Notes under the pieces: model-generated
What the model was told of the DNA's origin: nothing
What the model saw: the letters and a program-made list of their open reading frames with translations, nothing else
Database searches by the model: none
Shown: positions 2,623 to 63,692 of the stretch, in pieces
How positions within the stretch are numbered: the stretch's first letter is position 1
Layout of the letters: the number at the start of each line of letters is the position of its first letter
Program-made: the position numbers and the translations under genes
From: Escherichia coli
Lineage (GTDB): Bacteria > Pseudomonadota > Gammaproteobacteria > Enterobacterales > Enterobacteriaceae
Length of the DNA: 64,000 bases
Reading direction: 5' to 3' (one strand)
Assembly (NCBI RefSeq): GCF_041886205.1
Contig: NZ_CP169029.1

Positions 2623-3807
2623 ATGAAAAAAGTCATTTTATCTTTGGCTCTGGGCACGTTTGGTTTGGGGATGGCCGAATTTGGCATTATGGGCGTGCTC
2701 ACGGAGCTGGCGCATAACGTAGGAATTTCGATTCCTGCTGCCGGGCATATGATCTCGTATTATGCACTGGGGGTGGTGGTCGGTGCGCCAATCATCGCAC
2801 TCTTTTCCAGCCGCTACTCACTCAAACATATCTTGTTGTTTCTGGTGGCGTTGTGCGTCATTGGCAACGCCATGTTCACGCTCTCTTCGTCTTACCTGAT
2901 GCTCGCCATTGGTCGGCTGGTATCCGGCTTTCCGCATGGCGCATTTTTTGGCGTCGGAGCGATCGTGTTATCAAAAATTATCAAACCCGGAAAAGTCACC
3001 GCCGCCGTGGCGGGGATGGTTTCCGGGATGACAGTCGCCAATTTGCTGGGCATTCCGCTGGGAACGTATTTAAGTCAGGAATTTAGCTGGCGTTACACCT
3101 TTTTATTGATCGCTGTTTTTAATATTGCGGTGATGGCATCGGTCTATTTTTGGGTGCCGGATATTCGCGACGAGGCGAAAGGAAAGCTGCGCGAACAATT
3201 TCACTTTTTGCGCAGCCCAGCCCCGTGGTTAATTTTCGCCGCCACGATGTTTGGCAACGCAGGTGTGTTTGCCTGGTTCAGCTACGTAAAGCCATACATG
3301 ATGTTTATTTCCGGTTTTTCGGAAACGGCGATGACCTTTATTATGATGTTAGTTGGGCTAGGGATGGTGCTGGGAAATATGCTAAGTGGCAGGATTTCAG
3401 GACGTTATTCACCACTGCGCATTGCAGCAGTGACTGACTTTATAATTGTACTGGCACTGCTGATGCTCTTTTTCTGCGGCGGCATGAAAACAACGTCGCT
3501 TATTTTTGCTTTTATTTGTTGCGCGGGATTATTTGCCCTTTCAGCACCTCTGCAAATATTGTTACTGCAAAATGCCAAAGGCGGAGAGTTATTAGGTGCC
3601 GCAGGTGGGCAAATAGCGTTTAACCTCGGTAGCGCCGTCGGCGCATATTGCGGAGGTATGATGCTGACGCTGGGGCTGGCATATAATTACGTGGCGCTGC
3701 CTGCCGCCCTGCTTTCGTTTGCTGCGATGTCATCGTTGCTGCTGTATGGTCGCTATAAGCGCCAGCAAGCGGCGGATAGCCCGGTGCTGGCGAAACCACT
3801 GGGGTAG
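2623..3807 (+). CDS. araJ: MFS transporter AraJ
   Basis: 394-aa polytopic membrane protein starting MKKVILSLALGTFGLGMAEFG; upstream in-frame extension of the track ORF judged not coding; position between sbcC and mak. Confidence 0.9.
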   Translation: MKKVILSLALGTFGLGMAEFGIMGVLTELAHNVGISIPAAGHMISYYALGVVVGAPIIALFSSRYSLKHILLFLVALCVIGNAMFTLSSSYLMLAIGRLVSGFPHGAFFGVGAIVLSKIIKPGKVTAAVAGMVSGMTVANLLGIPLGTYLSQEFSWRYTFLLIAVFNIAVMASVYFWVPDIRDEAKGKLREQFHFLRSPAPWLIFAATMFGNAGVFAWFSYVKPYMMFISGFSETAMTFIMMLVGLGMVLGNMLSGRISGRYSPLRIAAVTDFIIVLALLMLFFCGGMKTTSLIFAFICCAGLFALSAPLQILLLQNAKGGELLGAAGGQIAFNLGSAVGAYCGGMMLTLGLAYNYVALPAALLSFAAMSSLLLYGRYKRQQAADSPVLAKPLG

Positions 3808-3832
3808 ATTACTGTCACGGTGCGCGTTGCTT

Positions 3833-3926
<94 letters not shown>

Positions 3927-3949
3927 GATGCGCCAATTGCCTACGTTTT

Positions 3950-4858
3950 TTACTCTTGTGGCCATAACCACGCAGCGCCGCGTACGCCGCTGGAATCACC
4001 GTGCTTCGCCTTACGCACCGGCGTTTCACATTCGCCGCCGAAGACAAATTGTTTAATCAACTGCGGAACCGTTTGATATAAACGGTCTACATTGCTCATC
4101 CCGCCCCCCAGCACAATCACATCCGGATCGAGAATATTCACGACATGTGCCAGCGATTTTGCCAGCCGCAGCTCGTAGCGACGCAATGCCAGTTCCGCTA
4201 CCGGATCGCTTTCTTCAACCAGGCTGATAATTTCACTGCCTTTCAGCGCATGTCCGCTCAAACGACGATAATCTGTGGCAAATCCCGTGCCCGAAATAAA
4301 GGTTTCAATACAACCTTGTTTACCGCAATAACAAGGGACTTCCTCGCGATAACGCAGTTCGTCTTCGTCCATCCACGGTAGCGGATTGTGTCCCCACTCG
4401 CCTGCCGTGCCATTGCCGCCGATATGCGCCCGCCCATTGAATGCCACGCCCGCGCCGCATCCCGTGCCGATAATCACGGCAAATACCGTCTGTGCTCCCG
4501 CTGCCGCGCCATCTACTGCTTCTGAAACGGCCAGACAGTTGGCGTCATTTGCCAGCCGCACTTCCCGCTGCAACCGCGCGCTTAAGTCTTTATCGAATGG
4601 CTGACCGTTGAGCCAGGTTGAATTGGCATTTTTCACCACGCCGGTGTAAGGCGAAATTGAGCCAGGAATGCCCATACCTACCGTTCCGCGCTGCCCTGTC
4701 GCCTGCTCCGCCATATCAACCAACGTGGCGATCGTTTCAATAGTCTGCCGGTAATCATCACGCGGCGTGGGCAGACGATGGCGGTACAACTGCTCCCCTG
4801 CATCGCCCAGTGCAATCACTTCAGTTTTGGTGCCGCCTAAATCGATACCTATACGCAC
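3950..4858 (-). CDS. mak: Fructokinase/mannokinase Mak (ROK family)
   Basis: ROK-family motifs ([28 protein letters not shown] zinc motif); start trimmed to a GTG giving the 302-aa form (VRIGIDLGG). Confidence 0.88.
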
Positions 4859-4982
4859 GGTACTCTCCTTATTTTTTTCAATATCAATAGCGTAGAGACG
4901 GACAACCGGATTGGCAATGCAAGGCCGCCGACAATTCGTTATCATGCCCGCTAAATTTAACGACAAGGCCGTGGAAATTATC

Positions 4983-5910: not shown

Positions 5911-5965
5911 AATGCCGGATGCGACGCCTGCCGCGTCTTATCCGGCGTACGAAGCCACACCAGGC
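5911..5965. repeat. REP-like palindromic unit downstream of rdgC
   Basis: GCCGGATGCGACGCCTGCCGCGTCTTATCCGGCGTAC. Confidence 0.7.
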
Positions 5966-37886: not shown

Positions 37887-38944
37887 TGGAGCGCACTATG
37901 AGTCAGAAAAATTTTGTGGAACTGCGCAACGTCACTAAACGATTCGGCAGTAATACGGTTATCGACAATATCAATCTCACCATTCCACAAGGGCAAATGG
38001 TGACGCTGCTCGGCCCTTCCGGCTGTGGCAAAACCACCATTCTGCGTCTGGTTGCCGGGCTGGAAAAACCGAGCGAAGGGCAAATTTTTATTGATGGCGA
38101 AGATGTCACGCATCGTTCCATTCAACAGCGCGATATCTGCATGGTGTTTCAGTCATACGCTCTGTTCCCGCATATGTCGCTGGGTGAAAACGTTGGCTAC
38201 GGGCTGAAGATGCTTGGCGTGTCGCGTAGCGAAGTGAAACAGCGGGTGAAGGAGGCGCTGGCAATGGTGGATCTGGAAGGCTTCGAGGACCGCTATGTCG
38301 ATCAGATTTCCGGTGGTCAGCAACAGCGTGTGGCGCTGGCCCGCGCGTTGATCCTCAAACCGAAGGTACTGCTGTTTGATGAGCCGTTAAGTAACCTCGA
38401 TGCCAACCTGCGCCGCAGTATGCGCGATAAGATCCGCGAGCTGCAAAAGCAGTTTAATATCACGTCGCTCTACGTCACTCACGATCAAAGTGAAGCTTTC
38501 GCGGTGTCCGACACCGTACTGGTGATGAATAAAGGTCACATCATGCAGATTGGTTCACCGCAAGATCTCTATCGTCAGCCCGCCTCCCGCTTTATGGCAA
38601 GTTTTATGGGCGACGCCAACCTGTTCCCGGCGAACTTTAGCGAAGAGGATGTCGATATCTACGGTTATCGCCTGCCGCGCGCGGCGCATTTCCCGGCGCA
38701 AGGTAGCGGCACCGTCGGCGTTCGCCCGGAAGCCATCACCTTAAGCAATCACGGCGAAGAGAGTCAGCGTTGTGTTATTCGCCATGTCGCCTACATGGGG
38801 CCGCAGTACGAAGTGACCGTAGAGTGGCATGGACAGGAGATTTTATTACAAGTAAACGCCACCCGTTTACAGCCCGATATTGGTGAGCACTATTACCTCG
38901 AAATCCATCCTTACGGGATGTTTGTTTTAGCGGATGCGGCATAA
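37886..38944 (+). CDS. ABC transporter ATP-binding protein, AfuC/FbpC/PotA-like
   Basis: Walker [11 protein letters not shown]-loop, signature [14 protein letters not shown], Walker [13 protein letters not shown]-terminal TOBE-like domain; start ambiguous between 37886 and 37898. Confidence 0.85.
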
Positions 38945-40614: not shown

Positions 40615-41448
40615 ATGGAACTCATTGAAAAACATGCCAGCTTTGGCGGCAGGCAAAATGTGTATCGGCATTATTCCCAATCACTGAAATGTGAAATGAA
40701 TGTCGGCGTCTATCTCCCACCAAAAGCCGCGAATGAAAAATTGCCGGTGCTGTACTGGCTTTCAGGCCTGACCTGCAACGAGCAGAATTTCATTACTAAA
40801 TCGGGGATGCAGCGTTACGCGGCTGAGCACAACATTATTGTTGTTGCGCCGGACACCAGTCCGCGAGGCAGTCATGTCGCAGATGCCGACCGTTACGATC
40901 TCGGGCAAGGTGCCGGGTTTTACCTGAACGCGACGCAAGCGCCGTGGAATGAACATTACAAAATGTATGACTATATCCGCAACGAGCTGCCGGATTTAGT
41001 GATGCAACATTTTCCGGCAACGGCCAGAAAGTCTATCTCAGGTCATTCTATGGGCGGGCTGGGCGCGCTAGTGCTGGCGTTACGTAATCCAGATGAATAT
41101 GTCAGCGTCTCGGCGTTTTCGCCCATTGTTTCCCCATCGCAAGTACCGTGGGGACAACAAGCCTTTGCCGCATATCTTGGTGAAAATAAAGAGGCGTGGT
41201 TGGATTACGATCCGGTGAGCCTTATTTCACAAGGTCAACGCGTTGCGGAAATCATGGTTGATCAGGGGTTGAGTGATGATTTTTACGCGGAACAGCTGCG
41301 GACTCCAAATCTTGAAAAGATCTGCCAGGCGATGAATATCAAGACGTTAATCCGTTATCACGAGGGTTATGATCACAGCTATTATTTTGTCTCCAGTTTT
41401 ATTGGCGAGCATATTGCCTACCACGCCAATAAACTGAATATGCGTTGA
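40615..41448 (+). CDS. frmB: S-formylglutathione hydrolase
   Basis: 277 aa esterase with GHSMGG nucleophile elbow. Confidence 0.93.
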   Translation: MELIEKHASFGGRQNVYRHYSQSLKCEMNVGVYLPPKAANEKLPVLYWLSGLTCNEQNFITKSGMQRYAAEHNIIVVAPDTSPRGSHVADADRYDLGQGAGFYLNATQAPWNEHYKMYDYIRNELPDLVMQHFPATARKSISGHSMGGLGALVLALRNPDEYVSVSAFSPIVSPSQVPWGQQAFAAYLGENKEAWLDYDPVSLISQGQRVAEIMVDQGLSDDFYAEQLRTPNLEKICQAMNIKTLIRYHEGYDHSYYFVSSFIGEHIAYHANKLNMR

Positions 41449-41451
41449 TAA

Positions 41452-41662
41452 TAGTGCACGACTGCCGGATGCGGCGTGAACGCCTTATCCGGCCTACACT
41501 TCGCCCATAAACCGTAGGCCTGATAAGACGCGAAAAGCGTCGCATCAGGCATTTGCGCACGGCTGCCGGATGCGGCGTGGACGCCTTATCCGGCCTACAT
41601 TTTACCCATAAACCGTAGGCATGATAAGACGCGCATAGCGTCGCATCAGGCATCTGTGCACG
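41452..41662. repeat. BIME cluster: four REP units as two near-identical ~100-bp direct repeats between frmB and yaiL
   Basis: CTGCCGGATGCGGCGTG(A/G)ACGCCTTATCCGGCCTACA...CCATAAACCGTAGGC(C/A)TGATAAGACGCG...AGCGTCGCATCAGGCAT occurs twice. Confidence 0.88.
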
Positions 41663-41674
41663 ACTTATCTATGT

Positions 41675-42214
41675 TTACCACATCAAATCATCAGGCACTT
41701 TGAAGTCGGCATACGGGTCGTCTTCATCCTGCTCTTCGGCGCTGAGCGCGCTGTGCAACACTATACTGCTGGCATCACGCTGAGCAATTTTATCGGCAAC
41801 GCTGGCGGGAATAATTGCGTATTCACCTTCGCTATTGTTATCGAGCAACAAGCGGGCAATCGCCAGACGACCATTAATCAACTGCGCCTGTGTGAGCTTA
41901 TCGACAAAAATCTTCTTAATCAGATTGCCGTCAGTGAAGTTAAAACCAATATCACCATTGGCAATGGTGATTCGGTTCATTTCAATGAGCTGCTTCACCT
42001 GGGCTTTATATTCTTTCGCCAACGCCGCTTGTTTTTGTTGCTCGCTAAGCTGTTTATCACGCTCAAGCTGTGCCTTTTTATTTTCTTCTACCGCTGCCCG
42101 AGCTTCACGCGCCTGAACACGCGATTTTTTCGCCGTTCTCTCCACCTTCGCTGCTTTTTTGCTGGTGACTAATCCTGCTTTGAGCAACTGCTCTTGTAAG
42201 GTAAGTTTTGCCAT
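41675..42214 (-). CDS. yaiL: DUF2058-type protein YaiL
   Basis: 179-aa form starting MAKLTLQEQLLKAGLVTSKKAAK; Lys/Ala-rich coiled-coil N-terminus. Confidence 0.8.
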   Translation of the reverse strand: MAKLTLQEQLLKAGLVTSKKAAKVERTAKKSRVQAREARAAVEENKKAQLERDKQLSEQQKQAALAKEYKAQVKQLIEMNRITIANGDIGFNFTDGNLIKKIFVDKLTQAQLINGRLAIARLLLDNNSEGEYAIIPASVADKIAQRDASSIVLHSALSAEEQDEDDPYADFKVPDDLMW

Positions 42215-43604: not shown

Positions 43605-43662
<58 letters not shown>

Positions 43663-56658: not shown

Positions 56659-56723
56659 GCAATCAATGTCGGATGCGGCGCGAGCGCCTTATCCGACCAA
56701 CATATCAGGACGGAATGATCGCA

Positions 56724-57345: not shown

Positions 57346-57445
57346 TTGCCTGATGCGCTTCGCTTATCAGGCCTACAAATTCAGTGATCTACGTAGGCCG
57401 CATCCGGCATGAACAAAGCGCAGGAACAAGCGTCGCATCATGCCT
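57346..57445. repeat. REP/BIME element between lacA and cynX
   Basis: GCCTGATGCGCTTCGCTTATCAGGCCTAC ... GTAGGCCGCATCCGGCATGAACAAAGCGCAGGAACAAGCGTCGCATCA. Confidence 0.85.
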
Positions 57446-60806: not shown

Positions 60807-60892
60807 TTGCCTGATGCGCTACGCTTATCAGGCCTACGAGTTCAGTGCTCTACGTAGGCCGGATAAGGCGTTCACGCCGCATCCGGCATAAA
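60807..60892. repeat. REP/BIME element between cynR and codA
   Basis: GCCTGATGCGCTACGCTTATCAGGCCTAC ... GTAGGCCGGATAAGGCGTTCACGCCGCATCCGGCA. Confidence 0.85.
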
Positions 60893-63611: not shown

Positions 63612-63692
63612 GTAGGCATAATAAGACGCGGTAAGCGTCGCATCAGGCATCGGCGCATGGTGTCGGATGCGCCAGGCGACGCATCCGACAAC
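63612..63692. repeat. REP-like palindromes between codB and prpE
   Basis: GGTAGGCATAATAAGACGCGGTAAGCGTCGCATCAGGCATCGG then GTGTCGGATGCGCCAGGCGACGCATCCGACAAC hairpin. Confidence 0.75.

Follow-up and report, generated by a model that had tools for sequence, protein, structure and literature searches.

The repeated DNA between frmB and yaiL in the 64-kb stretch of Escherichia coli DNA analyzed here (hereafter, the window) is a canonical two-unit BIME-2, an element of a kind already known and present in its standard form. Catalogues of REP/BIME elements in E. coli go back to the 1980s–90s; the K-12 reference has the same two-unit structure at frmB-yaiL, and nothing at the locus points to a new system. 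Taken as a whole, a canonical BIME-2 with the roles proposed for such elements in 3′-end formation and as gyrase sites is very probably the best explanation of the locus. The result is useful mainly as a clean negative (no CRISPR, no new mobile element, no new RNA gene); worth keeping from it are the dependence of a match to the naRNA4 class on the second unit, and the presence of IS621 and IS1397 at exactly the predicted REP positions.

A direct-repeat search over positions 41300–41800 returned two head-to-tail copies of 101 nt, 41456–41556 and 41557–41657, with 90% identity and 101-nt spacing, and Tandem Repeats Finder (TRF) reported a period of 101 at 41456–41665, comprising 2.1 copies with 89% matches, no indels and a score of 350. 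Compared directly, the two units are identical at 91 of 101 positions, and the 10 substitutions between them are located in the REP loops and bulges and in the linkers. Unit 2 is followed by the 8-nt beginning of a third copy, GCACGACT, which matches unit positions 1–8; the same 8–10 nt stand on both edges of the array, this linker motif being found also 5′ of unit 1. A flexible pattern scan identified four REPs of alternating orientation, Y(+), Z2(−), Y(+) and Z2(−) (Table 1), all of which agree with the reference sequences of Y and Z2 given as queries in PMC11208160, with Y1 one loop base away from the published Y query. The earlier note had described a direct repeat at 41452–41662 consisting of four REPs, arranged as two tandem inverted pairs of about 100 bp with few mismatches. 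The repeat search, TRF and the pattern scan agree with this description, and the position given was right within a few bases of the repeat found at 41456–41657. In the inverted-repeat scan, an exact 8-nt seed gave 0 pairs, as the mismatched REP stems break such a seed, and a 6-nt seed recovered the individual REP stems together with Y/Z2 cross-complementarities.

Table 1. Positions in the window of the two-unit array, its REPs and linkers, the flanking genes and the Rfam match.
Feature	Position	Strand	Basis
frmB/fghA, S-formylglutathione hydrolase, last gene of frmRAB	40615–41448	+	ORF and RefSeq annotation (LHM10-1, K-12)
BIME-2 unit 1, 101 nt: 8-nt linker start, Y REP, 16-nt linker, Z2 REP, linker	41456–41556		direct repeat and TRF
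Y-type REP Y1, GCCGGATGCGGCGTGAACGCCTTATCCGGCCTAC	41464–41497	+	pattern scan
Intra-unit linker, 16 nt, ACTTCGCCCATAAACC, from the CTAC/GTAG end of Y1 to that of Z2-1	41498–41513		
Z2-type REP Z2-1, GCCTGATGCGACGCTTTTCGCGTCTTATCAGGCCTAC	41514–41550	−	pattern scan
RF02564 match (naRNA4 class: rcY2, linker, Z2-1), yaiL-sense strand	41517–41595	−	covariance model
Inter-unit linker, 14 nt, ATTTGCGCACGGCT, Z2-1 to Y2	41551–41564		alignment with the naRNA4 model linker
BIME-2 unit 2, 101 nt	41557–41657		direct repeat, TRF and comparison with unit 1
Y-type REP Y2	41565–41598	+	pattern scan
Intra-unit linker of unit 2, ATTTTACCCATAAACC	41599–41614		
Z2-type REP Z2-2, weakened stem, GGCATGAT variant	41615–41651	−	pattern scan
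Third-copy start, GCACGACT	41658–41665		TRF and match to unit positions 1–8
yaiL, DUF2058 protein (K-12 b0354)	41675–42214	−	annotation transferred from LHM10-1 (locus coordinate + 38249 = window coordinate)

The REPs of E. coli are of three types, y, z1 and z2, and BIME-2 elements are pairs of y and z2 in tandem copies whose number varies from strain to strain (PMC3333891). All four copies in the array are imperfect palindromes whose stem is interrupted by a mismatch or bulge and ends in a CTAC/GTAG foot, and they belong to a sequence that is both highly repeated and extragenic: the REP core GCCKGATGCGRCG, allowing at most one mismatch, was found in 15 copies in the window versus 0.68 expected from shuffles, a query containing the BIME gave a median of at least 37 matches per E. 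coli genome, and the element lies entirely between the stop codons of frmB and yaiL. Furthermore, y and z2 alternate with linkers of 16 and 14 nt, the pairs are in tandem and their copy number is strain-variable, all of which are properties of BIME-2. What the earlier note had called a tandem duplicated BIME is the defining, normal architecture of a BIME-2 and no unusual duplication. Two other classes were tried and rejected. A BIME-1 does not fit since the partner REP is z2, of 37 nt, in place of z1, a 16-nt linker stands where BIME-1 has L, the element is tandem, and the IHF consensus WATCAANNNNTTR is absent within 41449–41674, linkers included. A CRISPR array does not fit since the entire 101-nt period repeats without unique spacers and the neighbors are frmRAB, yaiL and mhpT. 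The BIME-2 architecture and the lack of unique spacers bear out the earlier view of an ordinary E. coli REP/BIME and not a CRISPR; the further wording, “rather than mobile DNA,” was too strong, as REP/BIMEs are widely considered non-autonomous elements that serve as substrates of the TnpA_REP (RAYT) transposase (PMC3333891).

The window contains further REPs, none of the isolated ones in a tandem array. A second Y/Z2 pair at 3836–3928 is a single BIME-2-type unit with an 18-nt linker unlike the linker sequence at 41498–41513, which indicates that the linkers of the frmB-yaiL array resemble each other through local duplication and not through a consensus common to the family. Isolated REPs were seen at 5914–5950, 43621–43654 (a Y on the minus strand, just beyond mhpT), 56668–56701, 60854–60887 and 63612–63648, and 57396–57443 is a possible degenerate REP pair.

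The array is placed within a gap of 226 nt between the stop codons of two convergent genes, frmB (annotated fghA; stop at 41448, plus strand) and yaiL (stop at 41675, minus strand). The ORF listing and the RefSeq annotation assign frmR-frmA-frmB to the plus strand and yaiL and mhpT to the minus strand, confirming the convergent junction at which the element had been placed before. The annotation was that of strain LHM10-1, whose sequence agrees with the window at 100% identity over 611 nt (41250–41860), and K-12 MG1655 was also used; the intergenic region lies at about 377312–377534 of NC_000913.3 in K-12, whose RefSeq feature table names neither REPs nor repeat_region entries. The end of frmB shows three successive in-frame stops, TGA TAA TAG (41446–41463 region); the distance from the TGA to the start of the Y1 stem is 15 nt in the window and 13 nt in K-12, and Z2-2 lies 23 nt from the yaiL stop codon. 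A consensus scan of 41200–41900 found no intrinsic-terminator-like site on either strand and no hairpin of the array has a U-tract on its 3′ side, so that an intrinsic terminator was rejected as well. The other signals within the array were also set aside. Two minus-strand ORFs run through the BIME, one of 84 aa (41399–41653) and one of 44 aa (41418–41552); they are REP-derived, and in one-unit alleles the 101-nt indel, whose length is not divisible by 3, would shift their frame, so that almost certainly neither is a gene. A sigma-70-like match on the minus strand (41627 to 41599, TTATCA-17-TAAAAT) scores only 9/12 and has its second hexamer in the unit-2 linker; it begins in Z2-2, faces frmB in antisense and is probably due to chance. 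At the other end of the frm operon, fbpC, encoding a ferric ABC transporter ATPase, lies upstream of frmR in LHM10-1 (locus 1–695, about window 38250–38944), as opposed to yaiO in strains Res13-Lact-PEB08-01 and A36 (locus 1–670), so that the gene content directly upstream of the operon differs by strain.

The earlier note had proposed comparing REP copy number at this junction among E. coli genomes. We used as query the two coding flanks alone, which avoids the genome-wide REP matches and reads the intergenic length, on 58 complete E. coli genomes, evenly spread. The comparison separated two alleles of nearly equal frequency, one with two units (28 of 58 genomes, span 623–626 nt) and one with a single unit (30 of 58, span 523–526 nt), and no zero-unit or three-unit allele was found among the 58. 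K-12 and NC101 carry two units and O157:H7 carries one. The same two length classes were obtained from a second, independent spread sample queried with the whole region. When a synthetic three-unit sequence was used as query, the best 25 records all had spans of 502 or 401 nt and none was a three-unit allele, which leaves room for rare ones. In 133 of 5,425 matching records the frmB and yaiL flanks were not joined within 700 nt; the two of these that were examined both contain IS elements, and the remaining ones may carry further insertions or rearrangements at the frmB-yaiL BIME.

An alignment of seven alleles showed that one-unit alleles retain the edge of unit 1 that faces frmB and the Z2 of unit 2 that faces yaiL, and that a 1-nt deletion in the Y stem is common to all of them. 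The Z2-2 of the window shares the GGCATGAT variant with the Z2 of the one-unit alleles, and the inter-unit linker ATTTGCGCACGGCT is restricted to alleles with at least two units. The identities are mosaic, with 89–93% between the units of a strain and 88–99% between same-position units of different strains, compared to 96–100% for the coding flanks between strains. This suggests that the duplication is not recent and that the repeat evolves faster than its surroundings; the unit-by-unit identity matrix is too mosaic and too short to date or count duplications.

The polarity of the change was read from an outgroup scan of species-representative genomes, in which a conserved pattern of the YaiL C-terminus gave at least 120 loci. 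Among the matches listed, E. coli-type REPs were present downstream of yaiL at only three Escherichia loci. In E. albertii (NBRC 107761) frmB is convergent with yaiL across a gap of about 110 nt that holds a single pair, a Y and a short z1-like REP; in a divergent lineage labelled E. coli SCPM-O-B-8794, frmB is again convergent and a single Y and Z2 pair is separated by a 7-nt linker; in Escherichia sp. MOD1-EC7003 a single Y-Z2 pair is found on a contig that ends before the neighbor gene. Given a single REP pair in three other Escherichia lineages, the most parsimonious reading is that one Y/Z pair is ancestral and that E. coli gained the second unit by a duplication within the species. As a separate observation, the z1-like REP of E. 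albertii versus z2 elsewhere means that the REP type has changed between species at an orthologous site.

REPs may have undergone unequal exchange or slippage to give the duplication, or a BIME may have been added by TnpA_REP (RAYT), which in E. coli cleaves and recombines BIMEs in vitro and gives products with an added REP (PMC3333891). Since the junction of a tandem repeat is circularly ambiguous, the sequence fits host recombination and TnpA_REP addition alike. The description of the site as recombination-prone in the earlier note holds moderately: the split between one and two units and the IS621 and IS1397 insertions speak for it, whereas the existence of only two states and the 9–10% divergence of the units speak against it. 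These last two features point to an old, fairly stable polymorphism and not to a hypervariable site.

IS621 and IS1397, two REP-specific elements, insert naturally into the frmB-yaiL BIME. The natural target of IS621, whose recombinase is guided by a bridge RNA, is ATCAGGCCTAC (PMC11208160). In the O39:H21 strain Res13-Lact-PEB08-01 (NZ_CP062865.1, locus 3201–4705) an IS621 of the IS110 family is inserted in the first Z2 REP, with CCGTAG preceding the element, AGGCCTGAT following it and a CT/AG core on both sides; read on the REP strand, the site is ATCAGGC-CT-AC, exactly the published target. The window holds a perfect, intact 11-nt copy of this target in Z2-1 (41524 to 41514, minus strand), and its Y REPs contain two position-4 variants of it, ATCCGGCCTAC. 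IS1397, an IS3-family element that inserts specifically into the palindromic units of BIMEs (PMC1525189), is present in strain A36 (NZ_CP028739.1, locus 3386–4861), where it has entered the second Z2 REP at its loop and duplicated 3 bp of target, CAA; the corresponding place in the window is the loop of Z2-2 (41615–41651).

RNA folding on either strand predicted that all four REPs, which end in CCTAC, form stems with an internal mismatch and energies from −14.7 to −21.8 kcal/mol. Y1 and Y2 gave the same values, −21.3 kcal/mol on the plus and −20.9 kcal/mol on the minus strand, and Z2-1 about −21.5 kcal/mol; the Z2-2 hairpin is weaker (−15.2 and −14.7 kcal/mol). Compared with shuffled controls, the array had fold z-scores of −8.0 on the plus strand and −6.0 on the minus strand. 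In the minimum-free-energy fold of the whole array, REPs far apart pair with one another; such long-range pairing is thermodynamically possible and is regarded as of less relevance than local co-transcriptional hairpins.

For the function of the array we favor a modest role as a two-way hairpin barrier in the 3′-UTRs, and as a partial terminator, of the frmB and yaiL transcripts, a role to which we would give about an even chance. To a polymerase entering from either gene, each REP would present a bulged and stable hairpin with an energy between −15 and −22 kcal/mol. Such hairpins would block 3′→5′ exonucleases and would favor pausing or partial, possibly Rho-assisted, termination, and the block would set the 3′ ends of the frmB and yaiL mRNAs and curb antisense read-through. 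As duplex DNA, the array would probably be a preferred DNA gyrase site like other BIME-2s. REP325, also a BIME-2, is a partial Rho-dependent terminator and mRNA stabilizer, convergent genes flank about 60% of the REPs of E. coli, convergent pairs with an intervening REP are more highly expressed, and 78 REPs fall inside bidirectional terminators identified by prediction (bioRxiv 10.64898/2026.03.23.713779). According to this preprint, however, mRNA half-lives are not uniformly prolonged by REPs and Rho-dependence was not detectable for REP fragments of 2–4 hairpins, so that the four-hairpin array may terminate only weakly; a search of its supplement for frmB and yaiL found only a yaiL expression row. 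The insulator or mRNA-stabilizer role suggested in the earlier note would agree with this literature on REPs between convergent genes.

The strongest rival to the 3′-UTR barrier, a real possibility to which we would give rather less than an even chance, is that the array is selfish or neutral REPIN-like DNA, amplified by TnpA_REP/RAYT or by slippage, with no locus-specific host function and with a neutral second unit. The population data are consistent with it, in that one- and two-unit alleles are about equally frequent, the units are faster-evolving than their flanks (88–99% versus 96–100% identity between strains), the Y stem of one-unit alleles lacks 1 nt, the stem of one Z2 has already lost strength (−15 versus −21 kcal/mol) and some strains maintain a BIME split by an IS, while TnpA_REP recombines BIMEs in vitro (PMC3333891). 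It accounts less well for the maintenance of a REP pair at this site across Escherichia species, with frmB as the convergent neighbor in two of three outgroup loci, for the lack of any other terminator between frmB and yaiL, and for the genome-wide correlation of REPs between convergent genes with higher expression. A selfish origin is, moreover, compatible with the BIME-2 explanation as a whole and does not exclude it.

A tentative alternative, unlikely as the main role but compatible with the 3′-UTR barrier, places the function in the DNA, where the array would act independently of transcription as a strong gyrase site, possibly also as a Pol I or HU/cruciform site, and relieve positive supercoiling. 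Two Y REPs with convergent genes on either side would suit such a site, and gyrase cleavage sites are significantly over-represented in BIME-2, in y more than in z2, with cleavage rising when transcription is blocked (PMC6379681). However, the same study saw in vivo cleavage in only a subset of BIME-2s, and neither frmB nor yaiL was found by gene name in its supplementary files and tables, in which sites may be listed by coordinate (PMC6379681).

It is improbable, although it would be compatible with the barrier, that the stop-proximal Y1 REP down-tunes FrmB synthesis through ribosome stalling at the stop codon, mRNA cleavage and trans-translation. REPs no more than 15 nt from the upstream stop codon are reported to stall ribosomes (PMC12306157), and the position of the Y1 stem, 15 nt past the TGA of frmB in the window and 13 nt past it in K-12, is in keeping with this; however, the allele in the window stands exactly at the 15-nt limit, and the rule would not apply on the yaiL side, at 23 nt.

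The remaining candidate role comes from an Rfam search, in which RF02564 was the sole gathering-level match in the window, with 80.9 bits against a gathering score of 59.5 and model positions 1–77 of 77 covered. The match straddles the junction of units 1 and 2. The two-unit sequences of the window, K-12, NC101 and 2020N21-246 scored 79.6–81 bits and three one-unit alleles 31.8 bits; as only two-unit alleles contain the Z2-linker-Y junction, only these pass the naRNA4 threshold. RF02564 derives from one Y-linker-Z2 unit of REP325, a six-unit BIME-2 between yjdM and yjdN (PMC4550694), and because the model was built from a BIME-2 unit the match shows paralogy within a repeat family and not function or a new sRNA gene. 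The frmB-yaiL element was likewise rejected as the naRNA4 gene itself, since the locus is not yjdM-yjdN but a paralogous BIME-2 unit. That the two-unit allele encodes a naRNA4-like RNA with Y and Z2 hairpins, bound by HU, bridging REP cruciforms and condensing the chromosome, is the least likely of the roles and highly improbable: the full-length match on the yaiL-sense strand, its confinement to two-unit alleles and the original model of nucleoid-associated RNA (PMC4550694) would favor it, but any Y-linker-Z2 junction would match RF02564, the locus is not REP325, the matching junction is missing from half of the sampled E. coli genomes, and REP325/naRNA4 itself is reported not to compact the nucleoid measurably, with REP-REP contacts independent of HU (bioRxiv 10.64898/2026.03.23.713779).

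The similar frequency of one- and two-unit alleles argues against strong selection on the second unit, which may be neutral, and we consider it very unlikely that the polymorphism is functional. Were it so, lineages could differ in frmB and yaiL 3′-end formation, mRNA stability, read-through and local supercoiling, the two-unit allele having doubled hairpins, doubled gyrase-preferred Y REPs and a full naRNA4-class two-hairpin module, and the locus would be a natural isogenic-style test of REP dosage. On the practical side, it offers a natural one-versus-two-unit BIME-2 polymorphism of known polarity, which could serve REP-dosage tests on convergent 3′-UTRs, and a documented natural insertion site of IS621, with the 11-nt target intact in the window.

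Among known systems, intrinsic bidirectional terminators resemble the array in having GC-rich hairpins on both strands between convergent genes, and they differ in possessing a U-tract, which the frmB-yaiL hairpins do not have. With REPIN/RAYT systems it shares the inverted REP pair as the amplification unit. BIME-1 elements (RIP/RIB: y and z1 with a long L linker that carries an IHF site) also consist of a Y and an inverted second REP at an extragenic position, but they are single-copy, whereas the frmB-yaiL element is tandem, with a z2 partner and a 16-nt linker. REP325/naRNA4 is alike in its Y-linker-Z2 unit, gathering-level score and 3′-UTR position; it lies between the tandem genes yjdM and yjdN and has six units, in contrast to the two units between convergent genes found here. 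With the BIME-2 elements of E. coli the array has in common the y/z2 alternation, short linkers, tandem copies, extragenic site and strain-variable copy number, and there is no substantive difference, the frmB-yaiL array being a small representative with 2 units versus up to 6 (12 REPs) at REP325.
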